DNA of 19,735 bases from an uncultured archaeon. GTDB lineage: Archaea; Asgardarchaeota; Thorarchaeia; Thorarchaeales; Thorarchaeaceae. Both the position numbers and the translations under genes were made by a program. The stretch is taken from positions 17,977 through 37,711 of the forward strand of contig CAZPWM010000020.1 in assembly GCA_964590575.1 (NCBI GenBank), read 5' to 3'. How positions within the stretch are numbered: position 1 is the first letter of the stretch; every line of letters begins with the position of its first letter. The notes beneath the pieces are model-generated. The model ran no database searches, had not been told where the DNA came from, and saw only the letters and a program-made list of their open reading frames with translations. Below, in pieces: positions 2,790 to 19,735 of this stretch.

Positions 2790-2822
2790 TATGGTTGGTC
2801 CTCCCATAATTTAGTTGAAGGG

Positions 2823-4342: not shown

Positions 4343-4428
4343 GTTACTTTGTGTTGCTCGAGACTAATAAGCTCCTAAGGTGTGTTTCCTATAATAATAA
4401 GTGGGAGTATCCCTTTCAAGTGATCAAT
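4343..4428. promoter_or_regulatory. Divergent promoter region with TATA-like boxes on both strands
   Basis: Minus-strand TTATTA (4365-4370) lies about 25 nt before ATG 4342, consistent with a leaderless transcript. Plus-strand TATAATAA (4390-4397) lies about 32 nt before ATG 4429. Confidence 0.45.
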
Positions 4429-6387
4429 ATGGGACAGAGAGCGGAAGTTACAATCGACTGGCTAAGGAAAGGACGAATGGTTGAAGACCTCACCATCCTT
4501 CGATACCTCATTGCTGATTCTTCAGCATGGAAGTTAGAAACAGCCAAATTAGATACAACGCTCTTTGAGAGTACGTTTGGTCTACAACCTCTTCCCAATA
4601 GACCCAGTACAAATGTAGCAATCAACAGAGCAATCGGACAAGATGAGGTCACTGAGAAAATCACTACGAAGATGAGACCTCTGATTCCACTTGGTTCCAC
4701 AGTCCGTTCACAGGTTAAGTCACTCTTCCCTAAGAATTTAGGCTCTTCAGAGGCTAGTAAACTGTCATACGTGTTCTCTAGGTTCGTTCTTGAAGATACA
4801 CCCAAGGATATTGATTGGCCCCTTGTTCCGACTGGTCTCGATTCGCTGTCTGCGGCTCTCTTTACAATTAACAACGTTTCTACTTTGATAGGTGGAGAGA
4901 ATCCGTGGTTGCTACCTTTATGGTCAATGAAAGTTGAGGAACTTCGGTTGGAATGTCTTCAAACAATCCATGATTCATTGCTATCAGATAACGAAGTTGA
5001 GACCGTCATTGAAGTCATGGAAACAACAAAGGACTCCATCAAGGAGATTCTAATCCAAAATCCAACGATAGACAAAGCGCTTGCACCTCAAGATCCTCTG
5101 TCTGACAAGGTCGATAGATGGTTGAGGAAACTCCGCGAGAAGCTTGACCTACCAAGGAAGATTACTGATGAGACTCGTGAAAAGATAGCCGCAGAGGTCA
5201 TGGAAGAGGTCGGATCTAGAAAGGGGGCTGGCTCGGTGTCTATAGAGGAGGCAGACCTCCAACGGATGACTCTGACACAATGGAACATTCATGCCCTTCG
5301 TCCTGACGGACCATCAGCCTCAAGACATGAATCAATGCTTAAGATGTTTCGTGGAAACTTGAACCTCCTGGATTATGAACCACTCGTAAAAGTGTGCGAG
5401 TATTTGTCAGATTGTGAAATAGCTGGCCGACCAACTGCTCCTGAGATTGAACGGATTGTTGGAACTAGAAGACGAATGTCTCACTATACATTACAGCGAA
5501 TGGAATCAGTCCTCGACGAGAAATTCATCCCATCTGTGGCAAGGCTGGGACTCCAGTATAGATTCATCTTTACGGAGAAACAGAAACCTATTGTGGTAAG
5601 TGATGGGCTTGTAGAAAGGATGGTACTAACTGAATCGAGTCACAAAGGATGCTCAGTCCATCTTGAGCCTGAGAAGAGTCAAGGACCTTCTGATGCACTT
5701 CCTCCCAACAGCATTCAGATGGCTGTTGACTCAGAACTCATTTCAATGCGAATGGATCTCTATGATAAGAGGAACAAGACATGGAACATTGAACCGTGGA
5801 AACCCGCTTCTCGAAGTCCAGGACGTACAAAATTTTGGTTATTGCGTGAAACCCAGTATGATAAAAGTCCTATAACAAACCTGACAAAAAGACAAATTGA
5901 CATCATTGGACCAACTCTGACGTTTAGTGGATTGCGGTCGTCCAGGATGTGGTTGATGCAAAGAATTGGATTTAAGCCAAGAACCGTCAGGCGCTATCTT
6001 CGAAACATGCTTGATGAGAAGATACTACGAATGCTTTACACTCCTGCTCTGGAATACTGCGGTCTACCTGAAGGAATGCTTATAGTAGGAGATTTCAAAG
6101 AGCGCAGGTCTAGAGAATCTTTCATAGATTGGATGACCTCTCAGATTCCCTATGTTCATGTCTTAACTAATAAATCAACAAGGATGGTCGCCTATATTCG
6201 CTTACCAGCTTACAAGACAGACGTTGTTGGAGGAGTGATCAGGGAGAAACTTTCTGGAGGTAGAAAGAAGAACCGAATTACTACTCAGTCACTTACAGCA
6301 AGGCTGAAATCCTACAAGACCTACCAAATGACTGTGCTACAGAGACTCTCTCAGGAACAGGGACTAATCAACCCTTGGGAGAAATGA
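4429..6387 (+). CDS. Large putative transcriptional regulator: unknown N-terminal helical region plus two Lrp/AsnC-like wHTH modules
   Basis: Likely start is ATG 4429 (MGQRAEV); the track's GTG 4351 lies upstream of the TATA-like box. HTH 1: PTAPEIERIVGTRRRMSHYTLQRM...FIPSVARLGL. HTH 2: LTKRQIDII...LMQRIGFKPRTVRRYLRNMLDEKIL...YTPALEYCGL, followed by a RAM-like beta/alpha domain. Confidence 0.65.
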   Translation: MGQRAEVTIDWLRKGRMVEDLTILRYLIADSSAWKLETAKLDTTLFESTFGLQPLPNRPSTNVAINRAIGQDEVTEKITTKMRPLIPLGSTVRSQVKSLFPKNLGSSEASKLSYVFSRFVLEDTPKDIDWPLVPTGLDSLSAALFTINNVSTLIGGENPWLLPLWSMKVEELRLECLQTIHDSLLSDNEVETVIEVMETTKDSIKEILIQNPTIDKALAPQDPLSDKVDRWLRKLREKLDLPRKITDETREKIAAEVMEEVGSRKGAGSVSIEEADLQRMTLTQWNIHALRPDGPSASRHESMLKMFRGNLNLLDYEPLVKVCEYLSDCEIAGRPTAPEIERIVGTRRRMSHYTLQRMESVLDEKFIPSVARLGLQYRFIFTEKQKPIVVSDGLVERMVLTESSHKGCSVHLEPEKSQGPSDALPPNSIQMAVDSELISMRMDLYDKRNKTWNIEPWKPASRSPGRTKFWLLRETQYDKSPITNLTKRQIDIIGPTLTFSGLRSSRMWLMQRIGFKPRTVRRYLRNMLDEKILRMLYTPALEYCGLPEGMLIVGDFKERRSRESFIDWMTSQIPYVHVLTNKSTRMVAYIRLPAYKTDVVGGVIREKLSGGRKKNRITTQSLTARLKSYKTYQMTVLQRLSQEQGLINPWEK

Positions 6388-6389
6388 GA

Positions 6390-7379
6390 TTATATCCATT
6401 GTTCAAGCGAGGACTGTCGAGTACCAAATCCTTTCCAGAGCTTGAGTATTTTTTCTACCGTTGTTTCAACAGCATTTTCTGACATCACCATTCTTAGAAA
6501 ACGGGTCAATTTAGGAACGATGGGAGGATTCAACCTCAAATCGATTCCATCTGTGGATAAGTAAGATGGCTCATCAAAGACTTCACGGGCTCTCGTGAAA
6601 TCCTCACGCATGGAATATGTAATTCCTATAGCCTTTAGTACCTCCAACAATCTTCCGTGTCTTCGAAGTAATAGTGCACCTTTTCGGGGACCAATCCCTT
6701 TTGCCCCCTCGTGAAAATCGCATCCACATAGGACAGCAAGGTCTCTCAGCCTCTCAAGATCAAGCTGCATTTGCACCTCAATCTCCTTCATTCTCACTCT
6801 AAGAATTCGACCATTCGACACCTGGAGCTGTTTGGTGACATGGGGGCTTCCGAAAAGAATAGCATCTACATCATTTGAAACCACTGTGTCTACAAGGTTG
6901 TCACGACACATCGCCGCAGCCATCATCTCAGCTTCAGAGGGGGCGGTGATCGTAGGAGTGCCAATAACACAAGCGAGATCTTTGATATGGTTTGCTGAAA
7001 AGTACATTTGCACTGCTCGACTCTTCCAAAGTACCTCTGAGATATCTTCATTGTATGGATCTCCATCCTTGACAAATTCTTGATATAGCTGATTTGCGGT
7101 CTGGATGAGTTCTGGATTAGGCGCGCGTTTTCTTGACTCTGGAGGTCCATCAAAAATCATGACCGGAAGAATGTTGGAATTTAGTGTTGCTTTGACTAGA
7201 CTTAGAAAAGTTCCAACATGTGTGAGCGGTAACCTTCCATCCGGTGACTTGGTTGTCTTCATGACTGTTAGACGTCTTGTGATATAGTTGGGAACGTCTA
7301 TTGCGATTGTTCCAGGACTTATCTCTTCAAGGCCTGCCCACTGCCAAGGGATTACACTATTCCAGTTCTTCACTCCCAT
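6390..7379 (-). CDS. fen: FEN1/XPG (Rad2)-family structure-specific 5' nuclease, divergent FEN1 paralog
   Basis: MGVK start, IAIDVPNY, PVMIFDG, APSEAE, VVSNDVDAILFGSP, H3TH motif LCGCDF..GAKGIGP, and C-terminal PIP box QSSLEQW. All seven active-site carboxylates are present (D28, D77, E149, E151, D170, D172, D221). Confidence 0.9.
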   Translation of the reverse strand: MGVKNWNSVIPWQWAGLEEISPGTIAIDVPNYITRRLTVMKTTKSPDGRLPLTHVGTFLSLVKATLNSNILPVMIFDGPPESRKRAPNPELIQTANQLYQEFVKDGDPYNEDISEVLWKSRAVQMYFSANHIKDLACVIGTPTITAPSEAEMMAAAMCRDNLVDTVVSNDVDAILFGSPHVTKQLQVSNGRILRVRMKEIEVQMQLDLERLRDLAVLCGCDFHEGAKGIGPRKGALLLRRHGRLLEVLKAIGITYSMREDFTRAREVFDEPSYLSTDGIDLRLNPPIVPKLTRFLRMVMSENAVETTVEKILKLWKGFGTRQSSLEQWI

Positions 7380-7391
7380 CTTTCCGGCCTC

Positions 7392-8111
7392 TCATTTCAT
7401 ACTACGTAGACCCTTAGAGTCAGCTCTGATAATGATACTTGGCGGATTCTTGGGGGCCGCACAACGCTCAGTCAGAATACGAATCAAGTTCTCATTGGTT
7501 CGCAGTCTATCAATTCGTAAAACACTGTCAACAGCATGTGAGAGTACATTGCCCCCGATTGGTGAAGGGTCTCCAGAAATCCAATTCTTGGATGAATAGT
7601 CCGTAATCAGTACATGTGCATTGAACTTGTTGACTGCCTTTCGAGCAGTTTCAAGGGTGCGGAACAACTCACGTTGTCGGCCCTTTGTTCCTGGTGCTCC
7701 GGACAAGTTCAACGCACCAGTCAGACTGTCTAGGATTACGACTGAGACATCATTCAATCCTGAAAGCATACCAATCGCTTCTTCAATGTCAGCAAGCCCC
7801 ATCACTTGTCCTACTATTATGCGTTCTAGAACATCCACAGTGTCATCAGTCGAAGGACAGATGGTTCTTATCAAGGATGGACTATAATTTGTCCCTGAAT
7901 CCAAGAAGACACATTTCGCATCTGGGAGAGACCTTGCTGCTGACACTGCAACACCATGAGCTACAATAGTCAGAGGTGCTCGTTCAGAGCTATGTAGCAG
8001 GCTGATTTGTCGAGGTAGGATGATGCTTCCAAATGCTTGTTCAAGTACACGTGGTGTGAATCTAATCATAGATTCAGTGGGGATATCAAGTGTTTCAAGT
8101 GGTACTCTCAA
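7392..8111 (-). CDS. RecA/RadB-superfamily (Rad51-paralog-like) protein with degenerate Walker A
   Basis: TTG start with GGGAGG upstream. Motifs CVFLDSG, Walker B VVILDSL and RadA/RadB-type PIGGNVLSHAVDSVLRIDR. The P-loop position reads HSSERAPLT with no GKT. Confidence 0.8.
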   Translation of the reverse strand: MRVPLETLDIPTESMIRFTPRVLEQAFGSIILPRQISLLHSSERAPLTIVAHGVAVSAARSLPDAKCVFLDSGTNYSPSLIRTICPSTDDTVDVLERIIVGQVMGLADIEEAIGMLSGLNDVSVVILDSLTGALNLSGAPGTKGRQRELFRTLETARKAVNKFNAHVLITDYSSKNWISGDPSPIGGNVLSHAVDSVLRIDRLRTNENLIRILTERCAAPKNPPSIIIRADSKGLRSMK

Positions 8112-9060
8112 CAGATTCCATAGCCTCCCGTAAACTAGTAAAGTTGCGATGAAGGAGCACTTCAGGCTCGTACCCCTGTTTCAGTGGTTCCACATTAAGT
8201 CCTGTAGCTTCATGTTCTGGAACTAGAACCTTTAACCCCCCTTCTGTAGGGAAGATGGTCATTCGAACTGGCCATAAGGCTAACAGATCCTCGACCGTCT
8301 TCTGATCTTTCGCAATTCTGTACCCTTTCATCATTAGTCCATTCTGCTCGTCAATTATTGGTATCATCTGAATAGCTTCTGAAAGAAGGGTAGGAGTAGG
8401 TCCTCTGGTTTCAATCCCATAAGTACGTAGAAGAGCAATGACTCTATCAAACATTGGTCGGTCTCTTCCGTTCGCGATAAAGACGACATCAAGGTCTTCG
8501 AAATGAGTCAATGAAATAGGCAACAAAGATCGAGCTCGCATCAATTCTACAACATTGTTTCGGTGGTCTGAGTTAATGACGATGATACTATTTGAAGAAT
8601 TGACTGTGAAGGACGAACCATCTCCAGTCTGTACAACTCGCTTTGAGAGGTTTCTTATTGGATTCCCTTGTGACTGTGGAAGGAATTCCTGAACCTGAAC
8701 CATCAATGATGACGGGTCTCCGATGAAAGAAACGATAACCGATGTAGCAATTGCCGTTGCTATAGACGCCACCAAACCGAAAGGTAGAGCAACTACGAAA
8801 GCTACCACGACCAAATATCCTGTAGCCGCATAGGACACGATATTTAGAATCATCTTTACAGGTGTATCATCAGTCTGTTTTTTGACAACTCTGAGAAGCA
8901 CAATTGTGACAATGCCTACGAGTAAAAGCGGGAGCGGATTACCACCTCGAAATGCAAGAACAACTGCCACCACTGAAGCAAGGAGTTCAGCTCCCCCTGC
9001 AAGAGCTATTGCTCCAGCAAATATCAAACCGATTAGCTTGATGATGCCCTTTCCAAACAC
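8095..9060 (-). CDS. Membrane protein: about 4 N-terminal TM helices plus a soluble C-terminal domain, function unknown
   Basis: 321 aa. Residues ~8-113 form four hydrophobic stretches. The GTG start overlaps the upstream TAG by 1 nt, and the stop overlaps the next gene's start. Confidence 0.75.
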   Translation of the reverse strand: MFGKGIIKLIGLIFAGAIALAGGAELLASVVAVVLAFRGGNPLPLLLVGIVTIVLLRVVKKQTDDTPVKMILNIVSYAATGYLVVVAFVVALPFGLVASIATAIATSVIVSFIGDPSSLMVQVQEFLPQSQGNPIRNLSKRVVQTGDGSSFTVNSSNSIIVINSDHRNNVVELMRARSLLPISLTHFEDLDVVFIANGRDRPMFDRVIALLRTYGIETRGPTPTLLSEAIQMIPIIDEQNGLMMKGYRIAKDQKTVEDLLALWPVRMTIFPTEGGLKVLVPEHEATGLNVEPLKQGYEPEVLLHRNFTSLREAMESVESTT

Positions 9061-9779
9061 TATACATGACCCCCAACGGGTGCAGACACTCTAGATGTCT
9101 GAGGTTGCACTATTGGAATACCATTTTCCATCAGCCGTAGTGTTCCAATCAGTTCTTGATCTTCAAGTGTGTCAACAACTCTCATTATTCGAGTTGAGTC
9201 TTCCAAAGCATTTCTGACAAGCAAAATATCATGGTCCACCCATTTCTTGATAGTGCGATGGTGCACTGCTAGGTTGCCCGTTTCACTCATGGCTCGACTC
9301 TCACTTGTGATGATGATTCTTACTCCCTTCTCATCCACAATTCCCGCAAGCGTGGGAAGAGCTTCTTCGAACAGCTCTCTACCCCATAGAATTGGGTCCT
9401 CTCGAGCCATATCGAGTAACCTTGTTATCGAATCTATCACAATAAGGGAAACTCCTTCAGGAAGAGACCTAGAGAGACCTAGAATGAGGTTTCGAACCTC
9501 TTGCCTATCAATAGCCATGGTGACAGACACATTTTGGATTGACCCATCTGCAGATTCGATTGTTCGTTTCAGGCTTGGAATGAAACTTTGTTTGGAATCT
9601 GTATTGATCCATTCTACCTTTGAATACCGCGAAACTTCTGATGCAATAGAGCAGGCAAAGAGCGTTTTTCCTGAACCAGCATCCCCCCAGAGATGTATCA
9701 GACCGTCCAATGCTAAAGTTTCAGTGAGCATAGTATTAGACACTCGCTGATTCACGCTCCTCCTCAAGTTCAACCTCAT
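9060..9779 (-). CDS. RadB/Rad51-paralog-like ATPase with intact Walker A
   Basis: HLWGDAGSGKT, VEWINTD, Walker B LIVIDSI, IIITSE and KKWVDHDILL. No N-terminal HhH domain, so it is not RadA. The true start is uncertain (GTG 9755, GTG 9743 or ATG 9731, downstream of GAGGAGGAG). Confidence 0.85.
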   Translation of the reverse strand: MRLNLRRSVNQRVSNTMLTETLALDGLIHLWGDAGSGKTLFACSIASEVSRYSKVEWINTDSKQSFIPSLKRTIESADGSIQNVSVTMAIDRQEVRNLILGLSRSLPEGVSLIVIDSITRLLDMAREDPILWGRELFEEALPTLAGIVDEKGVRIIITSESRAMSETGNLAVHHRTIKKWVDHDILLVRNALEDSTRIMRVVDTLEDQELIGTLRLMENGIPIVQPQTSRVSAPVGGHV

Positions 9780-11412
9780 CTATTAGAGAAAGCTGCTGCG
9801 TGTCCCTGACCTTCTTCTTTTGTTTCCTAATGCTGGCTGTGACCACATCAGCCCCTATTATGTTGGTTTCAGGTCCATCGGGTTCTGTAGATTCCTCATT
9901 GGTAGTAGAGGTCTCTACAGATGCATGGAGCATCTGATCGAGAAGTTCAACTTCATCTTCCGAATCTTTCTTTGAAACTGGCTGAGTTTCTTCGCTCTCA
10001 ACTGCTGCAGAATTCTGAATGGGGTTTGGAATCTCTACATCATCAGTCGCCATATCTTTGTTTATCGCCTCAATAATTTCGTCTCGAGCACGATTATTGA
10101 GATGGTTATCTATCGCGTCTTTGATGTCTGGTCGAAGAGCTCCAATGTTGTATAGTGCCTCATTCAGTTGTGTTAGACAACGGACTGCTTCACCAAATGA
10201 AATCGCTTTTTTTACATGTCCCGTTAGACTAACATAAGCTAGCGCTAGAGACTCCTCCTCCCCAACACCTCCAAGATCTTGGAACAATCCAAGAAATTTT
10301 CGAAGTCCTACATCTGCAGATTTCATAGATATAGATCTTGAATCACTCTCAAGGGGTGCTAGTCTGACACACTCGTCAAGGACGGAACAAGCTGCGCTCA
10401 CTGCTGCATCAACATCGCCCTCCTCTAGAGCCCGACCTGCTGTAGCAATTAATGGAGAAACTATGAAATTTAGATCACCAATAAGTACCAACTTATCTTC
10501 GTTCTCAATGATTGATTTTGATATTCTCTCCGCATCACCCAACCTATCGAGTACTTTCTGTTCTTCTGAGATTTTAGTGACAAAAGCATTGATTGAATTT
10601 CTTGAAGATTGTAGCAACCAACCACTAACAAGCCCTGATGAAGCACTGGCCAAAAGAGGGATTATCAATGACCCAGAGCCAACTGTGAGTACTGAGAGAC
10701 TTGCAACAACTCCAATGATTAGACCTGAGAGAGCAAGAACACCAAACCATCCTCGAGAGAGACCACTCTCTAAGAGTGACCACTTGTTATCTAAAACACT
10801 CTTCTTTAAGTCTGGAAGCTTTGAACGAGCATCACTTCGACGAATAAGGACAAACTCATCGGGTGTTACTATCCTTCCTGTATCTGTGAGCCAAGTCAGG
10901 TCCATCGTTGGCTTGGTTCCTTCAGTGATGACATAGACAGTCCTTGTTTCGTGAATAAGTGACTCTGTCTTTCCTGATGATGATTGGAGCAGAGGCAGGC
11001 GAACGCGACCCCATGGAGTCACCACAGTCTGTTCCTTAATGAATTCATCTAGCCCTACGTCTCCGAGGACCCGAGGTAGTGATCTATTGATACTCTCAAG
11101 GACTGCAGCTCTCATTGCCAAGCCGCTGTTTCCAAACGCTGCCTCTCGGAGGTCTAAAACGTAGACAATGTCCACGTGAACGCCCCGAGTGCCTGGAACC
11201 GCCTCTAATCTAACACCTAGAGTAAGGCCATTTGGATATCTCATAGTAAAATGTCCAGTTACTTCCAGTGCGGCAGAAATGTCATGTTCTTTCTTCTCTT
11301 TTGTCTGAGGTTCCTGTTCAAGGTCTTCGCCTTCAGTTACCTTCTCTTCTCCCTTTGCCATTGTCAACCAATCTGCTCCTCCTTTGTCATTGTTCCTCTC
11401 CTCCTCTTTCAT
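9736..11412 (-). CDS. Membrane protein with 2 central TM helices, coiled-coil/helical domain and acidic disordered C-tail
   Basis: 558 aa. Hydrophobic hairpin WFGVLALSGLIIGVVASLSVLTVG / LIIPLLASASSGLVSGWLL; E/D/S/T-rich tail. The start may be TTG 11367 or ATG 11361, after GGAGGAG. Confidence 0.75.
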   Translation of the reverse strand: MKEEERNNDKGGADWLTMAKGEEKVTEGEDLEQEPQTKEKKEHDISAALEVTGHFTMRYPNGLTLGVRLEAVPGTRGVHVDIVYVLDLREAAFGNSGLAMRAAVLESINRSLPRVLGDVGLDEFIKEQTVVTPWGRVRLPLLQSSSGKTESLIHETRTVYVITEGTKPTMDLTWLTDTGRIVTPDEFVLIRRSDARSKLPDLKKSVLDNKWSLLESGLSRGWFGVLALSGLIIGVVASLSVLTVGSGSLIIPLLASASSGLVSGWLLQSSRNSINAFVTKISEEQKVLDRLGDAERISKSIIENEDKLVLIGDLNFIVSPLIATAGRALEEGDVDAAVSAACSVLDECVRLAPLESDSRSISMKSADVGLRKFLGLFQDLGGVGEEESLALAYVSLTGHVKKAISFGEAVRCLTQLNEALYNIGALRPDIKDAIDNHLNNRARDEIIEAINKDMATDDVEIPNPIQNSAAVESEETQPVSKKDSEDEVELLDQMLHASVETSTTNEESTEPDGPETNIIGADVVTASIRKQKKKVRDTQQLSLIDEVELEEERESASV

Positions 11413-13582
11413 TGAATCTACTCTTTAGAGCCTCCAAGAGACTCCGAGACATTCCAAGAACCTTCGAGAGCCCCCCGATCTCAGAAATGATTGATACTGA
11501 GTGAAGGAGCCACCTCGAAGACTCTAACAACCCGTACATGTCTCCCATACTAATACCAAGCTGGTCTGCTAGTTGCCTGACTGAGATATCAGTCGAAGCC
11601 AATGCAGCCATCATATGATCAAAAGAATCATCCAAGTTATTTCCACTTTCAAGCGAAATGAGATGACGAAGCAACCATAATAGGTGCGTGTTGTCCTCCA
11701 TTGTTGGAAGTAATGCGAGTAGTTCCCGTACTGTAGGGACACTCAGGTATAATCTGTTTACAGTTCTACCAAGTTTGGTAGGCTTTAGTTTTCCATCGAC
11801 ATCCCCTTCGACAAGACCAAGCCGGATTAATAATGCAAGAGGTGAGGTCTCTGAAAGTGCCAAGGGAATTACATAGTCTGCTAGAGTACCAAGCTCTCGA
11901 GAGGCAGTCATGCCTAATGTTACTAGATGATGACACAGAATTCCTTGTTCTGTCATAGGTCGACCACACGAACACCCTGCTCCCTCTGTGAGTCCTGATG
12001 GTGCTAGTCTTGCAGAGAACCTGCAGGTATACTGTCCACCTCCATAACCAGTAACAATTCCTCCAATCACGGTCTCATGTTGTTCTCTGATTTTCGTAGC
12101 TCCAAGTACTCCCTTTCTAGCTGATTGAATTGTGTCTGTTAGTGCATGGCGCTCCAGAGCCGCCTCTGCTGTGATTTCTCCTAATTGCAGAACTCTCATT
12201 GGTGCCATGGAGTCTCTGATTGCACTATGAACCAGAAATGACTCACCCAAGATTCCATTCTCAATCTCTTCCAAGGTGGCTGAAGATAGCATATCGAGAA
12301 TCACAAGGAGTTGTTCAGACAATGAGCTTGGTTCTCCCAACACACTGGAGATTGGGTCGTGCTTTGGCATGAGGAGTTCTTTTCCTGTGTCTTGGTCGGT
12401 CAGAACATCAAAATATCGAGTCTTGACCTTATCTGCTTCACCCGTGCTTCCGGCAAGGATTATTCCAAATCCAACCTTATCGCGACCGGGTCGTCCCGCA
12501 CGACCTAGCATCTGATGAACATTGTTTGCTGATAGAACTGCTCGGTAGTTTTGTGGTGACAATGTGTTGGACAAGATCACAGTTCGAGCTGGTAGATCCA
12601 TTCCAGCAGCCAATGTAGATGTAGCAGAGATCACTCTGACGAGACCTTGATTAAAGAGTCGCTCTACTAGTCTACGAGTCTGATAGTCAAGGCCAGCGTG
12701 GTGATATGCAGTGCCATCATGAAGGAGAGCTCTCATATCTGAAGGGAGATTGATATTGGCATTCTCTAGCGACTTGAGTTCTAAGTCTAACCTATCCTTC
12801 TCTCCTGAAGTGAATTGTCGTCCGACATCTTCTCCGAGTCTGATAGCCTGAGCCTCGGCTTCTCTCCTAGTCCGATTGAATACAATCGCTTGTGCATCTC
12901 CTTGCACTGTGGTCATTACCAGTTTCTTGAGACTTCGGTTCTTGTCCGCTGTAACCACAATTTTACAAACGAGAGGGACCGGTCTATCATCTGATTCAAC
13001 TAATTCGCACCCTATCCATTCGGCTAGCTCCTCGGGAGACCCCACAGTGGCAGAAAGTGCGATGATTTGAAGGTCCGCCAGTTGTCGCTTCATTCGAATA
13101 ATGAGGCTCTCGAGTCTAGCTCCTCTTCCAGGGTCCGCAAGAGTCTGAATCTCATCAATCACAACAGTTCCAAGCTCGCTAATCCAGCTTGCATTTCGAC
13201 GAAGGAGCGAGTCTGCTCTTTCATACGTTGTCACAATAATGTCATGCTCAGCAAATTCTTCCCCAGAGTTTTGAAAATCACCAGTGCTGAGACCAATCAT
13301 TACTCCAAACACTTCATATCGATTTTTGAGTACTTGGCTCACTTGTACAGCCAGAGCTCGAAGAGGAACCAGAAACAATCCCTTCTTTCCAGAAGTCACT
13401 GCACGGAGTAAGGCCAATTCACCAACGAGAGTCTTTCCGGAGCCTGTAGGGCTAGACACCATGATACTCTTACCATCGAGGAGTCCTTTGTCAATAGCTA
13501 GGTTTTGGATTCCTCTAGGTTTGATTCCAGCTTTACCCATGATTTCCTCGACTTTTGAGGCGACATCAGCTACAGCTATCAT
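11387..13582 (-). CDS. Ski2-like SF2 helicase (Hel308/Hjm/HELQ-type) with a SWIM zinc finger inserted in the winged-helix region
   Basis: Q motif IQNLAIDKGLLDG, SPTGSGKT, VVIDEIQ, ALSAT, YHHAGL, TSTLAAGMDLPA, QMLGRAGRPG and WH-ending PTKLGRTVNRLYL. SWIM signature CSC-x10-CHH at residues 537-552. Confidence 0.9.
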   Translation of the reverse strand: MIAVADVASKVEEIMGKAGIKPRGIQNLAIDKGLLDGKSIMVSSPTGSGKTLVGELALLRAVTSGKKGLFLVPLRALAVQVSQVLKNRYEVFGVMIGLSTGDFQNSGEEFAEHDIIVTTYERADSLLRRNASWISELGTVVIDEIQTLADPGRGARLESLIIRMKRQLADLQIIALSATVGSPEELAEWIGCELVESDDRPVPLVCKIVVTADKNRSLKKLVMTTVQGDAQAIVFNRTRREAEAQAIRLGEDVGRQFTSGEKDRLDLELKSLENANINLPSDMRALLHDGTAYHHAGLDYQTRRLVERLFNQGLVRVISATSTLAAGMDLPARTVILSNTLSPQNYRAVLSANNVHQMLGRAGRPGRDKVGFGIILAGSTGEADKVKTRYFDVLTDQDTGKELLMPKHDPISSVLGEPSSLSEQLLVILDMLSSATLEEIENGILGESFLVHSAIRDSMAPMRVLQLGEITAEAALERHALTDTIQSARKGVLGATKIREQHETVIGGIVTGYGGGQYTCRFSARLAPSGLTEGAGCSCGRPMTEQGILCHHLVTLGMTASRELGTLADYVIPLALSETSPLALLIRLGLVEGDVDGKLKPTKLGRTVNRLYLSVPTVRELLALLPTMEDNTHLLWLLRHLISLESGNNLDDSFDHMMAALASTDISVRQLADQLGISMGDMYGLLESSRWLLHSVSIISEIGGLSKVLGMSRSLLEALKSRFNERGGEEQ

Positions 13583-15933
13583 GCACTAGCACCTACCACT
13601 TCCTCGGCTTGACGGAGAGCCATACTTCCTTTCATCGTGATTCTGAAATTCGAGTACGAAACCCCACTGTGATTCTCATGACCCCTAAGGATCATACTTG
13701 CGTGCTCTAATCTTGCAAGCACCCCCTCGATATCCGGACTCTTTTCAGTCCCATTAGCAACTACAAACCGTCTTACAGCTTCCTCCGTTAGTGGTTCATA
13801 CCTTTCAAGAAGTTTGAGAACTCTGACTGCAAGGTCTGTATCCCCTGCTGCAACCATGTCAAGGAGTGTCCTATCGTGCAGTGACGTGTCCTGAGTTTCA
13901 GCCGGGACTAGCTTGTCTATCCGCTGTGACATATCCTGGTCCATATCAGGCTTTGAGAGATCGGGTGATTCATCAAGTTGAATCGGTTGACATGTTTCGG
14001 TTCCATCATGAACCAAAAGCGCTGTGTGATCATCCATGATTCTAAGGAACGATGATTCTCTGGGCGAGATACGAGCTTTCGTGTGCATCCCTGTTGTTAT
14101 CACACTTAACCCGAGTAAGTCCGAGATAATCTTGATATCAACTGACTCTCGTATTCGAAGGGAAACGCAGGATTCAAGGACACCAATGGCTCCAGGAGCC
14201 ATATCCGCTGGGTGTTCAAGTGCGAGAATCAGTGGACCTCTTCTCTTCAAATTCTTCAACAATCGCTCAGAGAATGAATCATGTTTCATGAATCGCCGGT
14301 TTCTGATTCTCATATTCTCAGCACCATCAAGAATGATGACAAGATTCGGATCCGGTTGCATTCCTGCGAGCTTCATACACATGAGGTTCCAAGCAAAGCT
14401 GTCTAGTCCCGTAGAGCCTAGCGATACTTTGATGATTGATAATGAGGGGTCTGCAAGACGTCTTGTTGGAACTGTTTGTGTTCCATAGAATGCTCTCGCG
14501 GCAGGTCCCATATGGAGCGACCTGATTGCCTCCAAACCAATGAGTGACTTTTTCGACGGTTTTTGTTCTTGAGACATTGTTCCATCTGAAGAAATAGTGC
14601 TAGGATCCTCAAATTCCGGACTCAAGCGAACGTCGGCAAGAGTGGCATTTCCTAATGATACAGCTCTTGAAACAGCAATCTCAAGTTCTGCAGCACCACG
14701 TAAATCCTGCGCCGCAACAACTTGGAGGGCAGACATAAAGAGAGGCACATACTCGCTGCGTGGCACTCCCTCTGAGTCAAGAGGATTCAATACAAGGTCT
14801 CTTCCTAACTCAAGAAACACAGAAGCTTCCGAGAGCCCCGTCAAGTTTGCTATGGATGAAGTGCCTGTCACAAGTACGACTCTTTTTCCAGCTCGCAGTA
14901 ACTCGGATGTGAGTAAGGCTAACACGTGATGTCTTGCATTCTCAGTACCTCCACAGATTAGCGTTCCACTTTCAAGATCTGCATGTGATAGACCTGCTGG
15001 GGGTCCAGTTTGGAGTGTATCCGGATTTAATGTAGATCCAAGTCGATAATCATCGGGGCGCCCTCGAATTGGTGCAATGAACTGACCGGGAATATTACTC
15101 CCGACTTCAGCGGCCAACTCACTTCGCAATTGAACTAACCATTCTGCCAGTTCAGAGCCTGCCGCATAGAACCAGCTATCTTGTTCATCGATTTTGTGCT
15201 GCTTCATTCTTGAATGCAGAACTTGTGGTTTAACTCTCTTCCAATCTTTCTCAGGAACTGCAGCTCTCACCGCAGAGTCGAAGGAGTCAATCTGTGTTGC
15301 ATCGCGCATATGTCCGATAATTGTGGCATGTGACACCCAAAGACCACCCCGTCTAGCGAGATAGGCATCCAGTGCTCCCTTTGACAATGCAGAAAGATAG
15401 CCTTCTAACAAGTTGGAGACTCTTTCTTCATCCATCGCCCTAGTAATCTCTTCAGGCTTCATGGTTACATAGAGTCCAAACCCAGTAGATGTATCGAGGG
15501 CTCTTACTAGTGATCCGACACTGCCCAGTAGATTAGGACTTGCTTTGCCAAGATCCATTCCGATGGAATAACGTGTGCCACCAACTCCCCTTAACTCGAC
15601 ATTCTCAGAATCAACGAGAACTGATACATCTCCTTCTGGTATCTGTATCCATGAACCCTGAAGAAGTACGTTCATATCTTTCATGTCTTTAAGCTTCGGA
15701 GAAAGATATTGAGTCAAGAGAATGATAACTGCAGCAATTGTTGTTGCTACTGGAATGTATAAGCCCACCACAATCGCTACCAATGTTCCAAATAGTATCT
15801 TAGCTAGTGGGCGACCAAGCTCTCTATTGTCCCATCGGATCTCTGTCCCTACAGTGATTGTTCCCTTAGATTCAGATAATTCCTGGAGTGGGTCGACCTC
15901 TGGTTTTGTACCAAGTATCAGACGTTTACCCAT
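13579..15933 (-). CDS. Membrane-anchored HerA/VirB4/FtsK-superfamily protein with degenerate ATPase motifs and a C-terminal winged helix
   Basis: Two TM helices at ~43-76. HerA-like lead-in YRLG...PAGLSHADLESGTLICG. Walker A position GGTENAR, LVLNPL, Walker B position VIILDGAEN, and KRRGPLILALEHPADM (cf. RKxG...ATQxP). C-terminal wHTH-like VLKLLERYEPLT...VLARLEHASMI...FRITMKG. Confidence 0.75.
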   Translation of the reverse strand: MGKRLILGTKPEVDPLQELSESKGTITVGTEIRWDNRELGRPLAKILFGTLVAIVVGLYIPVATTIAAVIILLTQYLSPKLKDMKDMNVLLQGSWIQIPEGDVSVLVDSENVELRGVGGTRYSIGMDLGKASPNLLGSVGSLVRALDTSTGFGLYVTMKPEEITRAMDEERVSNLLEGYLSALSKGALDAYLARRGGLWVSHATIIGHMRDATQIDSFDSAVRAAVPEKDWKRVKPQVLHSRMKQHKIDEQDSWFYAAGSELAEWLVQLRSELAAEVGSNIPGQFIAPIRGRPDDYRLGSTLNPDTLQTGPPAGLSHADLESGTLICGGTENARHHVLALLTSELLRAGKRVVLVTGTSSIANLTGLSEASVFLELGRDLVLNPLDSEGVPRSEYVPLFMSALQVVAAQDLRGAAELEIAVSRAVSLGNATLADVRLSPEFEDPSTISSDGTMSQEQKPSKKSLIGLEAIRSLHMGPAARAFYGTQTVPTRRLADPSLSIIKVSLGSTGLDSFAWNLMCMKLAGMQPDPNLVIILDGAENMRIRNRRFMKHDSFSERLLKNLKRRGPLILALEHPADMAPGAIGVLESCVSLRIRESVDIKIISDLLGLSVITTGMHTKARISPRESSFLRIMDDHTALLVHDGTETCQPIQLDESPDLSKPDMDQDMSQRIDKLVPAETQDTSLHDRTLLDMVAAGDTDLAVRVLKLLERYEPLTEEAVRRFVVANGTEKSPDIEGVLARLEHASMILRGHENHSGVSYSNFRITMKGSMALRQAEEVVGASA

Positions 15934-16231
15934 GTTTCACTCCCTCCGACTTTGCTATCAATCGTTGAGTACTTCTTTGAAGCATGTCCAAGACCTGTCT
16001 GAGACGGTCCACATAGGCTGGGTCACCACCAGCTATGACAATAGCCCTGTTTCCTGTCATTAGTAGCTCTGGCATATTGCCAAGAGTTGGATTACCGTGC
16101 GCAACAAGCAAAGGTTGTCGTGTGAGAACAGTCCATTTGTATCCGTGGCCAAGTTCAAGAGACCTCATTATGTCCTCGGGCTTAACCCCGGTGGGTATCT
16201 CCAGGCCTGAACGTAATTCACTTGGATACAT
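15926..16231 (-). CDS. Small hypothetical protein
   Basis: 101 aa, ATG with GGAGG upstream, overlapping both neighbours (14 nt and 8 nt) in operon orientation. Confidence 0.75.
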   Translation of the reverse strand: MYPSELRSGLEIPTGVKPEDIMRSLELGHGYKWTVLTRQPLLVAHGNPTLGNMPELLMTGNRAIVIAGGDPAYVDRLRQVLDMLQRSTQRLIAKSEGVKHG

Positions 16232-16820
16232 TGGACTCTAAGCCTCCTGTGTTTACAATCAGAACATCCTGTTTCTCTGCCCGTTCTATAGGCAAATGCG
16301 GATACGCTGCTCTCATTGCGCTTTCAAGAATCATGATATCTGCTATCAACAACTTTGATAGTTGTTCGACCTTTGACCGAGTGTTTGGTAGACGGAGCGA
16401 ACTTCTGCGGACAAGCATCCCCACTTTCGTTAATTCATTTCCAACTGGCCGTGTGATGAAGAAGACGAGAGTTCCGCCTTTTTCGTTCTCGAAGCGAGTG
16501 TGCATAGCTTGGAGAACTTTTGTTGCTGAATGACTTAGATCAATTCCGAGTGGTACACTTCCAAAAAGTCTTGCAGCACATAGCTCTACTCGCCAGGGTC
16601 TGATAGTTGCAATAAATCCTCGATGTTCATCCCATAGTATATTGGGGTTGTAGCTTGACTTATAGTCGAGATATAGAAATACAGAATAGATCAGAATCCC
16701 CGTCCCTATTAGAGCAACATCTGTGAGGTCATTGGGCGAAATCCAAACTTTCAGTAGTAACGTTGTGACAAATACTGAAAGTGTGAGCCACTTGAGTCCT
16801 GGTATGTCAATGATCTTCAT
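16218..16820 (-). CDS. Membrane protein (2 N-terminal TM helices), apparent paralog of the N-terminal domain of the HerA/VirB4-like protein
   Basis: 200 aa, ATGA overlap with the upstream helicase and GGAGG upstream. Its VEL...LGIDLS and ESAMRAAYP segments match VEL...IGMDLG and DSAVRAAVP in the 784-aa protein. Confidence 0.75.
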   Translation of the reverse strand: MKIIDIPGLKWLTLSVFVTTLLLKVWISPNDLTDVALIGTGILIYSVFLYLDYKSSYNPNILWDEHRGFIATIRPWRVELCAARLFGSVPLGIDLSHSATKVLQAMHTRFENEKGGTLVFFITRPVGNELTKVGMLVRRSSLRLPNTRSKVEQLSKLLIADIMILESAMRAAYPHLPIERAEKQDVLIVNTGGLESNVSK

Positions 16821-18778
16821 CCTGTCAAACCCTCCTGCATCTTCACGAATTGACTAATGGCAAAACTGAGTTCCTCAATGTCCCTGTACGGCCAGACATC
16901 TGACACGATATCATCGCCGAATACTTTCAGATGTTTGAGGAATCGATTGTCCAGTAGAACTACAACTCCTGTGTCTGTTGGAGACCTTCGAAGTCTTCCA
17001 ACCAACTGTGCAACTTGACGAATTGAGGGAATCACTGCAGAATAATAGTAACCAGTCCCACTACCAAACCGAGAATCATACCATCGCTGAAGTGCAACCT
17101 GATAACTCGTGGGCGGACTGAATGGAACTCCAATACCGATAATCAAATCGATCATACTTGAACCGTCACTCACAAGGTCGATTCCCTCTGAGAACTTGCC
17201 CCCGTATACACAGAATACCGCTTGCGGTCTGTCTGAAATCGCTTCAGCGAGGGTTTCAATGCGTTCTGTTCTGGTTTCAATCAGGGTCTCTCGAAATCCA
17301 GTATCAATTGAATAGCTCATAACCTCGTGAAGCATCTTGTAACTTGGAAATGCGATTAATGCACTCTTGTTCGCTGGCATCGTTGTCAATGCTGCTGTAA
17401 TTCTGTCTACAATACTGCGCCAGAGGTCAGGTCCCCGAAGCTGGTACTTAGTGTTCAGAATCTTATCAACGAGCACCAACCTAGTTCCTCGTGGATAAGG
17501 GCTTGTTAGGTCTTCGGCAACCGCTCCTGATACTCCGAGAAGTCGAGAATAGTAATCGAGAGGTCTCAATGTTCCAGACATCAAGACAGCAGATCTTGCA
17601 CTCCTAAGAATTGGTGCTGTGAGCCCAGAGGAGTTCAGTGGCTGAATCATGAGTACGGATTTCGAAGCTGGTAGATCTTCTCTCCAGGATTTTTGATTCT
17701 GCAATGTGACGTGCCACCCCTCACTCTTCGATGCTCTCTGTGAGGTATATAGAAACTCAATGAGCCGGTCTAGTGGGGTTTCAATCAAACCTGCATTCTC
17801 AGGGTCTCCTAAACCAGGTCTCCCTGCGCTGTGTAGTAGTTCGAGGTCTTCCTCCTTGACAAATCGAGGTGCCACATCCCATTTATCAAGAACCCGTTCA
17901 GTGCGATTGTGCATTCTATCTAGATTGACCATCATGGTTTCCCAGAGGAAATCGATGACCTCGCGAATCCATTTGAGTCCGGTTTCTTTTGTGACCAGTT
18001 GATGGTTCTCTTTTAACCATCTCAAGTCCTCATTGCTAAGCTGAGAGGTTTCTGCGTCAAGGACATGGCTTGAGAGGTTATGTGCTTCATCAACAAGAAG
18101 ATCCACCTCTGGGAGTGAGAGTCCAAGGGACGCTAGCAGTGCATCACGAACTCGCGATTTGAATATGTAACTATACGGCCCAATTATTACACGACTACTC
18201 CTAGCGCACCAGCGCATCATCTCATATGGACAGACACCTTCATCAGCTGCCCTTTCCTCAACTCTTTCTCTTGTAACGACTCCTGTATTCAGTAAATCAT
18301 CAACAGCTTCTCGGAGAACAGCACGGATTGTGATTCTGCCATCTCCTTTGTTTTTTTCGTAGAAGTTCCAATAATGATGGCAGGAACCTGTTCGGATCAT
18401 CTGAGCACAGGCTCGCATGAATCCTGTTGAACTTAGAGCCTCCATCTGGTGGCGGATTGGACAGACGTGAACTCTCGAGACCATGGTCGTAGCTGTTAGG
18501 TCCGGTTTGACTGAGCGAAGAACATCCAGTTCGCTCTCAAAGACCTTAGACTGCGAATGAGTCCTAGTGAGGGCGAATAGTCTGGATGTATTGTCAAGAC
18601 CTCGAGCAGCTAAGTACCCTGACAGGACTGCAATGGTCTTTCCAACCCCACAGTCAGCTGAAAGCATCCCCACAGTCTTTCTTGAATAAGCATCTACTGC
18701 GAGACTGACAGCTTTCTCCTGATGCTGTCTAGGAGAATATGGAAAGAACTCCATTGTGTCAGTCGTCGCAGTACTCAA
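16817..18778 (-). CDS. Fe-S cluster XPD/Rad3/DinG-family 5'-3' DNA helicase
   Basis: FPYSPRQHQ Q motif, ADCGVGKT, TRTHSQ, four Fe-S cysteines (C106, C124, C133, C183; VCPYE), LLVDEAHNL, LMSGTL, FPSY, GKFSEGID, QLVGRLRR and VLLDNRF. The TTG start abuts the upstream stop and has a GGAGGGAG RBS. Confidence 0.92.
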   Translation of the reverse strand: MSTATTDTMEFFPYSPRQHQEKAVSLAVDAYSRKTVGMLSADCGVGKTIAVLSGYLAARGLDNTSRLFALTRTHSQSKVFESELDVLRSVKPDLTATTMVSRVHVCPIRHQMEALSSTGFMRACAQMIRTGSCHHYWNFYEKNKGDGRITIRAVLREAVDDLLNTGVVTRERVEERAADEGVCPYEMMRWCARSSRVIIGPYSYIFKSRVRDALLASLGLSLPEVDLLVDEAHNLSSHVLDAETSQLSNEDLRWLKENHQLVTKETGLKWIREVIDFLWETMMVNLDRMHNRTERVLDKWDVAPRFVKEEDLELLHSAGRPGLGDPENAGLIETPLDRLIEFLYTSQRASKSEGWHVTLQNQKSWREDLPASKSVLMIQPLNSSGLTAPILRSARSAVLMSGTLRPLDYYSRLLGVSGAVAEDLTSPYPRGTRLVLVDKILNTKYQLRGPDLWRSIVDRITAALTTMPANKSALIAFPSYKMLHEVMSYSIDTGFRETLIETRTERIETLAEAISDRPQAVFCVYGGKFSEGIDLVSDGSSMIDLIIGIGVPFSPPTSYQVALQRWYDSRFGSGTGYYYSAVIPSIRQVAQLVGRLRRSPTDTGVVVLLDNRFLKHLKVFGDDIVSDVWPYRDIEELSFAISQFVKMQEGLTG

Positions 18779-19402
18779 TCAGTCTCCCTCCACTCGTAAT
18801 CGCGCTTCTGCTCGATAGACTCTGAACTTCAGGGAGAAGTATTTGTGCAGCACTTGCTGGAATCTCATCATGAGTTCTGGCGAACTGAATCCGGTCTCTT
18901 TCCTTGCCATTCTTTCAACTATAGCTGGACTGAATCCTCTCTGACGCGCAGCCTTCCAAAACCAAAGTTCAACCTCCTTCATTGTCGAGAGCAAATGGGA
19001 AAGTGATTCCTCAATGATTGACATCAGTTCCTGTACTGCGTTCTTCGGGTCTTGAGGAAGTCTAGAGACCCTGATTCCAGTTGGTAGATAGACTGCCACT
19101 CCCTCTGTACTGTCTAATTTGACCTCTGTGGGAACTCCTTTGGTCCCTCGAAGGGTTTCAAGTAGCGAGAGAATCTTTGGTAATTGGTGAAGTACTGGTT
19201 TCTCCAGGTCGGGGTCTCTCCAGTCTACTCGTGTGACAACATAGAGTTCGGGGTCCGGTCCCCTTACCCGTTCCAACACCGTGATCCTATGCGAAGTTTC
19301 TCTTAGTAGGAGGTTCACTAGGTTGATCATCGAACTCCCTGGAATGCTTGGGGGTGTCGTGGGAACCCACGTTGGCTGATTGGGATTGTGAGTGCTAGAC
19401 AT
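18779..19402 (-). CDS. Hypothetical soluble protein
   Basis: 207 aa, ATG with GGAGG, 8-nt overlap with the upstream gene, Pro-rich N-terminus. No family recognised. Confidence 0.75.
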   Translation of the reverse strand: MSSTHNPNQPTWVPTTPPSIPGSSMINLVNLLLRETSHRITVLERVRGPDPELYVVTRVDWRDPDLEKPVLHQLPKILSLLETLRGTKGVPTEVKLDSTEGVAVYLPTGIRVSRLPQDPKNAVQELMSIIEESLSHLLSTMKEVELWFWKAARQRGFSPAIVERMARKETGFSSPELMMRFQQVLHKYFSLKFRVYRAEARLRVEGD

Positions 19403-19735
19403 CTGTCCAAGCCTCCTTTGTCAAGGATATAGCGACTCCATCATTGTGGATTGCTCCTTCCGACTCGAGTGTGTCTAGAAACTTTGTTGCACGCCCTAGA
19501 TCTATACCCGCCTCACTACATTCTCTCATTACATTCTCAATGGAAACAGACCGTCCTCTATTCATATCAATCAATGATTCGAAAATATTGAATACTCGTT
19601 TCTTTAGTCCAAGTCCTCGACCATTTCCTCCCTGTCTAACTTTGGAGATCTGCGACTCGATGGTGAGTTCACGAACACTTGACTGAGCTTCTTGAACCGT
19701 TACAGCATACACTGTCCCACTCTCATGCAGAACGA
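19395..19735 (-). CDS. C-terminal part of a protein ending in an MCM-type winged-helix domain (5' end beyond the window)
   Basis: The frame stays open upstream of GTG 19712 to the window edge (..VLHESGTVYAV). VTVQEAQSSVREL resembles the MCM lid VTxEDAxxAIRL. VFNIFESL...VSIENVMRECSEAGID...KFLDTLESEGAI resembles the archaeal MCM C-terminal WH. Confidence 0.6.
   Translation of the reverse strand, partial: VLHESGTVYAVTVQEAQSSVRELTIESQISKVRQGGNGRGLGLKKRVFNIFESLIDMNRGRSVSIENVMRECSEAGIDLGRATKFLDTLESEGAIHNDGVAISLTKEAWTDV

Follow-up and report, generated by a model that had tools for sequence, protein, structure and literature searches.

The described systems closest to the locus presented here are Ced of the Sulfolobales and Ted, two domesticated type IV secretion systems (T4SSs); the Ted DNA-import loci of the Thermoproteales co-localise with HerA and Rad50, an arrangement which the passages dealing with these loci in PMC9905601 read as import coordinated with recombination. 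The stretch of DNA analysed here (the window, 19,735 nucleotides [nt]) corresponds to positions 17977 to 37711 of contig C20 in the draft genome of a member of the Thorarchaeales (G000; 3.4 Mb, 91% complete), and it covers the larger part of a block of about 32 kb that has been inherited vertically and comprises at least 16 genes in the same orientation, in addition to a polytopic membrane protein (gene R) and a giant surface protein. The block appears to be a recombination machine located at the cytoplasmic face of the membrane. Similarly to Ced and Ted, as these are presented in the same passages (PMC9905601), it combines a VirB4/HerA-fold membrane protein (gene I) with small partners carrying two transmembrane (TM) segments, is chromosomal, and would serve recombination with imported DNA. 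Different from both, its VirB4-like protein is devoid of the Walker A lysine, neither a VirB2/CedA1/TedC-like pilin nor a VirB6/CedA/TedA-like channel was recognised in the block, and the block features its own RadA, two RadB-like proteins, and XPD, SWIM-Hel308 and FEN1 paralogs, together with a giant adhesin-like protein rather than pili. A search of the full texts of published papers returned no description of this gene combination, in agreement with the preliminary description of the window, which had recognised it from no described system; Asgard RadA paralogs had already been noticed, in a study whose passages on them (PMC12722695) do not discuss gene neighbourhoods, and no discussion of gene neighbourhoods is found in the retrieved passages on archaeal Ski2-like helicases. 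Since the nearest kind, Ced/Ted, is not matched on the Walker A motif, we regard it as a system of a new kind, although it could still turn out to be a DNA importer that has diverged strongly.

Further terms of comparison are offered by other systems. The bacterial competence machinery includes the ComEC channel, the ComFA helicase, DprA, RecA and RadA/Sms. The block resembles it in its logic, namely, a membrane complex, a superfamily 2 (SF2) helicase motor, mediators loading a RecA-family recombinase on the entering single-stranded DNA, and a branch-migration helicase; however, homology is limited to the RecA and SF2 superfamilies, and no ComEC-like or DprA-like protein was detected in the Pfam and NCBIfam scans. 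The eukaryotic homologous recombination (HR) network (RAD51 paralogs, SWS1/Shu2, HELQ, FANCJ/RTEL1 and FEN1/EXO1) brings the same families together as the block, namely, a recombinase accompanied by one ATPase-active and one inactive paralog, a SWIM zinc finger, a helicase of the Hel308/HELQ type, one of the XPD family and a Rad2-family nuclease, the likeness being drawn at the family level. Different from that network, SWIM is fused to the helicase in the block, and the proteins are membrane-tethered and encoded in one operon. Finally, as in the archaeal HerA-NurA-Mre11-Rad50 operon (also treated in passages of PMC9905601), a HerA-superfamily ring is encoded together with recombination proteins, whereas the hub of the block is nearer to VirB4 than to HerA (Z of 28.5 versus 24.2), is membrane-anchored and has a dead P-loop, and NurA, Mre11 and Rad50 are missing from the block.

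Layout and conservation of the operon

Twelve consecutive open reading frames (ORFs), designated D to O in the order of transcription, occupy positions 6390 to 19733 of the minus strand of the window. The 11 junctions measured between them are, in the same order, -8, 0, -4, -14, -8, -4, -26, -44, -1, -17 and +12 nt, that is, nine overlaps (1 to 44 nt), one abutting pair (18778/18779) and one gap of 12 nt, with ATGA overlaps at 16817-16820 and 13579-13582. The twelve coupled minus-strand genes of the preliminary description are real and their junctions are those it had given, and the operon is larger than it had noted, being truncated by the window: three more genes on the same strand, which encode the RadA paralog and the proteins B and A, lie upstream on contig C20. 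Downstream of gene O, the order is a convergent gene (P), then gene Q, the polytopic membrane protein R and an ORF of 2596 amino acids (aa) encoding the giant protein. The run of 12 genes is not due to chance, since their order persists at 25 to 85% protein identity across the family.

Synteny was followed by tblastn in one genome per genus for 10 other genera, picked for a gene I match on a long contig, four genera with matches being left out. Genes D, E, F, G, I, J, K, L, N and O are present in order in 10/10 genera, M in nine and H in seven; gene A is found in nine of the ten, as is the RadA paralog, which is adjacent to genes D to O in these; B occurs in six and P in nine. The succession of R and the giant gene is found in nine genera, the remaining case being G343, and the reciprocal comparison, with G362 as the query, agrees with these counts. 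Moreover, four genomes of the same genus as that of the window share the same order, with protein identities of 32 to 87%, and the block sits in a fixed chromosomal context, with the same flanks across genera. A partial version occurs in another family. In the sister-family genome G025, in particular, we could observe the order RadA, D-like, E, XPD, two small genes, I, J, K-like, R, a giant gene of 2599 aa, L, M-like, N-like and FEN-like; R and the giant protein thus sit inside the operon in this genome, since both stand between the K-like and L genes. Gene order, whose conservation the preliminary description had left as a point to verify, is therefore kept within the genus and in all ten genera outside it, and the membrane proteins co-occur with the enzymes at fixed positions. 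Together with the extra enzyme copies reported below, this lets stand its proposal that divergent paralogs form a dedicated set on a scaffold in the membrane, the substrate named there (incoming, exchanged or membrane-anchored DNA) being a putative one.

Gene I was found in 21 of the 41 relatives first sampled and, by profile, in 110 of 400 Asgard genomes; its full-length form is confined to the family of the window (53/85 genomes, 15/16 genera) and to the single genome of a sister family. Among five near-complete genomes without gene I, four (91 to 93% complete) are also without a J ortholog and the fifth has J at a contig end. Given that four of the five genomes without I are also without J, the block occurs or is missing as a unit and is not universal.

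Enzymes, hub, membrane anchors and surface protein

Every enzyme of the block is an extra, divergent paralog which keeps its catalytic motifs, gene N being without Walker A. In fact, the canonical FEN1, RadA and XPD encoded elsewhere in the genome exceed the curated cut-offs, the cluster copies, at 34 to 276 bits overall, all stay under theirs, and the cluster enzymes are not the sole housekeeping copies, a question on which the preliminary description had made its proposal depend. Its assignments of an XPD-type helicase, a Hel308-SWIM protein, two RadB-like proteins (one without Walker A) and a FEN1-like nuclease were all borne out by Pfam and NCBIfam models and by motifs.

The RadA paralog, upstream of the window on contig C20 and on the same strand as the operon, is full-length (360 aa), with a helix-hairpin-helix domain (HHH_5) and a Pfam Rad51 match (1.5e-56); it scores 229.5 bits, the cut-off being 361.15 and the canonical RadA on contig C38 reaching 464.5 bits, and Walker A is present in 13/13 orthologs. 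In our tree, the Thorarchaeales cluster RadA sequences form a 100/100 clade that includes two families and stands apart from canonical RadA (91/98). In a published tree, according to the passages of PMC12722695 that present it, eukaryotic Rad51/DMC1 are separate from every Asgard RadA paralog sampled. Two more RadA paralogs, 52 to 53% identical to the cluster RadA, are carried by contigs C144 (1696-3230) and C188 (224-1312) of the same genome, and the pair of a RadA paralog and a D-like protein recurs outside the operon, since one of these extra genes precedes a second zinc-ribbon/winged-helix (WH) gene like D.

Two helicases are encoded in the operon. Gene F (16817..18778, minus strand, as for all genes from D to O) encodes an XPD/Rad3-type Fe-S helicase paralog of 653 aa (Pfam DEAD_2, 4.1e-20; Helicase_C_2, 8.4e-26), whose score against TIGR00604 (155.7 bits) is under the cut-off of 246.95, compared to 308.1 bits for the canonical XPD on contig C8. 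Its closest solved structures are those of archaeal XPD (3.8e-34), and the four Fe-S cysteines, GxGKT and DEAH are kept in 16/16 aligned sequences. The best PADLOC match of gene F is the type IV-A CRISPR-associated DinG (1.7e-78; 262.7 bits, versus 155.7 bits for the rad3 model), and no Cas or Csf gene was seen near it. The canonical XPD on contig C8 lies about 900 nt from the best RadB-like gene of the genome, on the same strand (24358-27682). Gene J (11387..13582) encodes a Hel308/Ski2-type helicase paralog of 731 aa with an inserted SWIM zinc finger (Pfam DEAD, 5.5e-31; Helicase_C). Against the Hel308 models it scores 280 to 358 bits, the cut-offs being 887 to 1216, while the best Hel308 copy of the genome, on contig C9, reaches 614.6 bits. 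The SWIM motif CxCx(n)CxH occurs in 15/15 gene J orthologs, different from canonical Hel308, which is without SWIM, and motif II reads DE[IV]Q in 14 of the 15. In the tree, the cluster Hel308 copies fall outside the canonical Hel308 clade with a support of 90/93, the support for their own monophyly being only 34/71. Gene J also matches the HamB profiles of PADLOC, up to 1.7e-36.

Genes L and N, each of 239 aa, encode RecA-fold relatives only, their scores being below the RadB equivalog level. Gene L (9060..9779) is a RadB-like ATPase with an intact Walker A, GxxxxGK[ST] being present in 13/13 orthologs, and matches TIGR02237 at 2.2e-8 (34.3 bits, cut-off 172.4). Gene N (7392..8111) is RadB/Rad51-like (Pfam Rad51, 1.8e-8; TIGR02237, 4.1e-13, 49.7 bits with the same cut-off of 172.4); GxxxxGK[ST] is absent from the sequence of the window as well as from the six orthologs scanned (6/6), and the protein is probably without ATPase activity. 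The best RadB match of the genome, on contig C8, reaches 135.2 bits. Furthermore, gene O (6390..7379) encodes a FEN1-family 5' nuclease paralog of 329 aa (XPG_I, 3.3e-19; fen_arch, 8.5e-38), which scores 130.3 bits against fen_arch, compared to a cut-off of 351.95 and to 411.7 bits for the canonical FEN1 on contig C116. Residues D28, D77, E149, D170, D172 and D221 are invariant in 9/9 sequences, and the C terminus shows QxxLxx followed by aromatic and aliphatic residues, that is, a motif resembling a PCNA-interacting peptide (PIP). A GEN1-like identity of gene O was ruled out by comparison with solved structures (FEN1 match at 4e-24 versus GEN1 at 8e-8).

Gene I (I784; 13579..15933) encodes a protein of 784 aa, which comprises an N-terminal hairpin of two TM segments, an N-domain, a VirB4/HerA-fold domain and a C-terminal WH. 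By sequence profile, HerA was reached at E 0.044 only. In an AlphaFold2 (AF2) model built from a 12-sequence alignment, with a predicted local distance difference test (pLDDT) score of 72, Foldseek retrieved TrwK/VirB4 at E 8e-12 and HerA at E 7e-10, and VIA-align gave Z values of 28.5 for VirB4 (4ag5; root mean square deviation of 2.6 over 320 aa), 24.9 for DndH-C, 24.2 for HerA, 20.8 for TrwB and 16.2 for FtsK. The HerA/VirB4-like assignment of the preliminary description, invisible to Pfam, NCBIfam and PADLOC, was thus confirmed by fold. The model also reaches a Z of at least 16 with the STIV2 B204 packaging ATPase and has the RecA-like core and the topology of the FtsK-HerA superfamily; its solved HerA-fold relatives include the SIR2-HerA and DUF4297-HerA defence complexes. 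Full-length TrwK aligns with the model from residue 99 on, and the placing of a TM hairpin ahead of the VirB4-like part resembles the VirB3-VirB4 fusions.

Three further proteins of the operon are membrane anchors. Gene G (G200; 16218..16820; 200 aa) consists of a TM hairpin and a cytoplasmic domain of about 130 aa and matches no family. Gene K (K558; 9736..11412; 558 aa) has an N-domain, a central TM hairpin, a helical C-domain and an acidic tail, and gene M (M321; 8095..9060; 321 aa) has four TM segments at the N terminus and a C-terminal domain of about 190 aa, with no family or PDB match. Hydropathy indicates two TM segments each in G200, I784 and K558 and four in M321, in support of the earlier TM calls for these proteins. 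The loops of the anchor hairpins measure 3 to 7 residues and contain one Lys or Arg at most, in most cases none, while the flanks are rich in these residues; since the external loops are short and poor in Lys and Arg and the flanks rich in them, the soluble domains of the anchors should all be cytoplasmic. The AF2 model of gene K has a pLDDT of 76, and of about 90 across residues 45 to 455; Foldseek found no match for it at E <= 0.001, and the wide VIA search gave a best Z of 9.6, with HEPN-like four-helix bundles on residues 305 to 425, in the range of common helical arrangements. ESM Atlas searches with K and E returned no usable match. When a domain common to G200, the I784 N-domain, K558 and M321 was sought with hhalign, only G and I were paired (30 columns, E 0.026), the other combinations giving nothing.

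As to the surface components, gene R (R198; 2962..3558, minus strand) encodes a polytopic membrane protein of 198 aa with charged and polar positions that do not vary, a WTRN motif among them, and without a match among PDB sequences; neither R198 nor the four-TM M321, the polytopic proteins that could be compared with a VirB6/CedA-like channel or a VirB2/CedA1-like pilin, shows detectable similarity to any entry of Pfam, NCBIfam or the PDB sequences. The giant gene (3..2807, minus strand) is present in the window with the N-terminal 935 of its 2596 aa, the full ORF spanning C20:12993-20783. Its product has a signal peptide-like hydrophobic stretch (residues 1 to 30), alpha-alpha-toroid repeats, many Ig-like domains, a TM segment at 2560-2580 and a short basic tail; it is Ser/Thr-rich and matches Prenyltrans, Big_1, Big_3_5, Filamin and MG2 in Pfam. 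Judged by these features, it is built like a surface adhesin.

A proposed role in DNA uptake or exchange and the competing readings

It is possible to hypothesize that the block serves the uptake or exchange of DNA coupled to recombination, a reading inferred from the gene content and to which we assign a probability of about 40%. The surface protein would contact another cell or DNA, and the DNA would pass the membrane at a complex formed by gene R, the anchors and the dead VirB4-like ring. XPD enzymes move with 5'-3' polarity and Hel308 enzymes with 3'-5' polarity, as established for the two families and presumed for these paralogs. With such opposite polarities, the XPD and Hel308 paralogs could draw in and unwind the DNA in place of the lost VirB4 motor, a pulling role similar to that of ComFA in bacterial competence. 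The RadB-like pair and the zinc-ribbon/WH protein D might then load the dedicated RadA on the incoming strand and, after strand invasion and PCNA-linked synthesis, the FEN1 paralog would trim the flaps. We favour this reading because the fold of the hub is that of a secretion system, because the block is linked to an adhesin and to a polytopic membrane protein, which in G025 even lie within the operon, because the toolkit suits the needs of a recipient cell, and because the Ted import loci co-localise with recombination genes, as stated in the passages of PMC9905601 on those loci.

Several observations weigh against it. The Walker A position of gene I reads GGxxxxR in 12/12 orthologs, GK[ST] is absent from all 12 and from four of four distant Asgard homologs, and in G025 the Walker B aspartate is missing as well; gene I is, from these motifs, probably not an ATPase. 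Since the Walker A lysine is gone in all 16 homologs, DNA translocation by gene I cannot be assumed, and the comparison with a CedB-type import motor, put forward in the preliminary description, is weakened by the missing GK[ST]. The block showed no recognisable pilin of the VirB2/CedA1 type, channel of the VirB6/CedA type, relaxase, DNA receptor or nuclease that would degrade one strand; R, M, K, G, E and A were without a match among families, PDB entries or the Atlas, and the anchor proteins, as predicted, would leave almost nothing exposed outside the cell. The linkage of the giant protein is absent in one of the ten genera (G343) and could be inherited synteny. Furthermore, hhalign did not demonstrate that K and M are homologous to the TM proteins of similar build in G149, a genome of another Asgard family described below (E 0.03 and 0.025, respectively).

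The dead P-loop, the lack of a recognised channel or pilin and the anchors facing the cytoplasm are also the reasons why a second explanation remains a serious competitor, even though we consider it somewhat unlikely. According to it, the block would act, tethered to the membrane, on the chromosome of the cell itself and be devoted to the repair of breaks or crosslinks, to fork restart or to resolving and segregating entangled copies at the membrane or the division site, with the hub and the anchors as a scaffold only; a loose comparison is the membrane-anchored FtsK, which couples DNA handling to Xer recombination. All enzymes have in fact classic repair and recombination activities, with intact motifs, the PIP-like tail of the FEN paralog points to PCNA and DNA synthesis, the soluble domains are all predicted to be cytoplasmic, and the loss of the hub's P-loop fits a scaffold better than a transporter. 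The fixed chromosomal context throughout the family and the failure of the Pfam, NCBIfam and PADLOC scans to recognise any secretion or uptake component are likewise in line with it. However, this explanation does not account for an extracellular protein of about 2600 aa and a polytopic protein that travel with the block and, in G025, are found inside the operon, nor for VirB4 being the closest fold, with a TM hairpin in front, over HerA and FtsK; moreover, the four genomes of 91 to 93% completeness without I and J imply that the block is dispensable, unless it was missed in binning.

A defence against viruses or plasmids, which would detect or catch invading DNA at the membrane and then degrade or inactivate it through the helicases and the nuclease, is improbable. 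The models for such a comparison are the membrane-anchored Zorya and the helicase-nuclease system Hachiman, and the block is like Hachiman HamAB, type IV-A DinG and SIR2-HerA in its helicase profile matches and in a hub structure near the defence HerA proteins. The better agreement of the XPD paralog with DinG than with rad3 (262.7 versus 155.7 bits), the HamB matches of the Hel308 paralog, the SIR2-HerA and DUF4297-HerA complexes among the HerA-fold relatives, the patchy presence outside the Thorarchaeales and the slightly raised GC content can all be counted in favour of defence. In PADLOC 2.0, the two helicases match strongly and one RadB-like protein weakly, but no complete known system was found, 11 of the 16 scanned proteins had no match, and neither Cas/Csf, HamA nor Zor partners were present; different from those systems, the block has no HamA, Csf or SIR2 effector, includes recombinases and occupies a fixed genomic position. 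Three RecA-family proteins and a PIP-tailed FEN1, in turn, suit strand exchange and synthesis, not destruction, and gene order and neighbours are constant in 15 of the 16 genus-level lineages with a match, unlike those of shuffled defence islands.

A domesticated or still-integrated conjugative or mobile element, whose transfer and replication genes have decayed, is highly improbable: although the VirB4-like hub fold, a somewhat atypical composition (tetranucleotide distance at the 92.6th percentile) and a second A-B pair in G006, 75 to 79% identical to that of G000, could speak for it, no integrase, relaxase, replication initiator, tRNA target or flanking repeat lies in the annotated stretch, the flanks are the same across genera, and the cluster RadA is an old 100/100 clade over two families, as expected under vertical descent.

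Among known organisms, Asgard archaea are those most closely related to eukaryotes; here, one whole order keeps a second, specialised recombination set that an operon ties to a giant surface protein, to membrane proteins and to a dead hub of the VirB4 type. If DNA uptake or exchange is the true function, the block would be the first DNA-transfer system described for Asgard archaea, as far as our literature search shows, and a new solution, with helicases in place of the secretion ATPase; if the block serves instead the cell's own chromosome, it would represent membrane-organised recombination in archaea. A bolder and quite unlikely extension of the uptake reading is that the Thorarchaeota, and in a looser form other Asgard archaea, possess a parasexual apparatus made of an adhesin, an ATPase-dead, T4SS-derived entry hub and a private recombination toolkit, which would be a counterpart, possibly a forerunner, of the eukaryotic RAD51-paralog/SWIM/HELQ/FANCJ network. 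The block provides a testable set of about 18 genes and gives a context to at least eight protein families without known relatives, as well as to the Asgard RadA paralogs treated in the passages cited above (PMC12722695).

Remaining genes and looser versions in other Asgard families

The remaining genes of the block are mostly devoid of known relatives. Pfam, NCBIfam, PADLOC and PHROGs gave no match for D, E, G, H, I, K, M, P, Q, R, A and B, and sequence-profile searches against the PDB stayed at E 0.6 or worse for E, K, M, R and A. Gene D encodes a protein of about 150 aa with an N-terminal zinc ribbon of four cysteines and a WH; the window holds its C-terminal part (19395..19735) as an ORF open at the 5' end, and we consider it one protein because its orthologs are contiguous, with 146 to 152 aa. 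The four cysteines are nearly invariant in the orthologs. The WH gave weak profile matches to the Mcm7 C terminus (E 0.012), the archaeal MCM WH 2m45 (E 0.032) and 4fdg (E 0.59); the MCM-like WH of the preliminary description holds as a WH, now joined to a zinc ribbon, and its MCM likeness is weakly supported (E 0.012 and 0.032). A scaffold gap of 100 N lies exactly at the end of the window (19681-19735; L023 17213-17366), with about 55 nt duplicated on both sides; given this duplicate, the two contigs probably overlap, and the gap would be an assembly artefact that splits gene D.

Gene E (18779..19402) encodes a soluble protein of 207 aa, with a mean column identity of 51% and no match in Pfam, NCBIfam, PADLOC, PHROG, PDB-profile or Atlas searches, and gene H (15926..16231) a small soluble protein of 101 aa with a conserved GHGY motif. 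Gene P (4351..6387, plus strand; 678 aa, no family match) is convergent with the operon and linked to the block but movable: it lies in reverse orientation beside the FEN paralog in eight of the ten genera and upstream in one, and was not found in one. Gene Q (3755-4342; 195 aa, no family match) is present only in some versions of the block, and a paralog with 43% identity is carried by contig C112. Genes B (155 aa) and A (264 aa), upstream of the window on contig C20 and on the same strand as the operon, match no family either. In G006, a second A-B pair (L040 18410-19997) is convergent with gene P, about 10 kb from the cluster of that genome; it is 75 to 79% identical to the pair of G000, while the rest of the G006 cluster is 32 to 60% identical, which hints at a recent transfer or duplication of the pair. 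As regards base composition, the cluster (window 6390-19735 plus contig C20 up to 40319) has a GC content of 46.4%, compared to 43.5% for the genome (standard deviation of 1.3 in 16-kb windows), and 46.9% in the giant gene, and its tetranucleotide distance lies at the 92.6th percentile.

Outside the Thorarchaeales, the presence of the block is patchy. The profile of the gene I family matches 3262 cluster representatives at E <= 1e-3, of which 108 at E <= 1e-30; among 10 representatives looked up, the three with organism names are all Asgard. Forms of gene I without TM segments, of 520 to 570 aa, occur in several other families (6/6 in family f21). The proteins of family f9 that carry the VirB4-like pseudo-ATPase domain have it in their central part, are about 1250 to 1340 aa long (e.g., G308, L060 9567-13577) and are encoded in a different context, no helicase or RecA-family neighbour being found in the 20 kb examined around the G308 gene.

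In three genomes from three families (G149, G031 and G160), a TM-less gene I homolog lies within about 15 kb of related genes. A SWIM-bearing Hel308 paralog and RadA/RadB-like genes are near it in all three, and FEN-like genes in G149 and G160; moreover, a TM protein immediately precedes the gene I homolog in each of them, and TM proteins with a K-like build (central hairpin) and an M-like build (four N-terminal TM segments) recur in these versions. With hhalign, the I784 N-domain matched a TM protein of 282 aa from G149 at E 0.0019 over 101 columns, which is only suggestive. In G031, a gene for an alpha-alpha-toroid protein abuts the RadB-like gene. In G149 (L055 2005-3184), finally, the FEN-like gene comes after one for a TPR protein and is immediately followed, on its own strand, by genes for a Roadblock/LC7-domain protein and a small GTPase of the Arf/Ras type.

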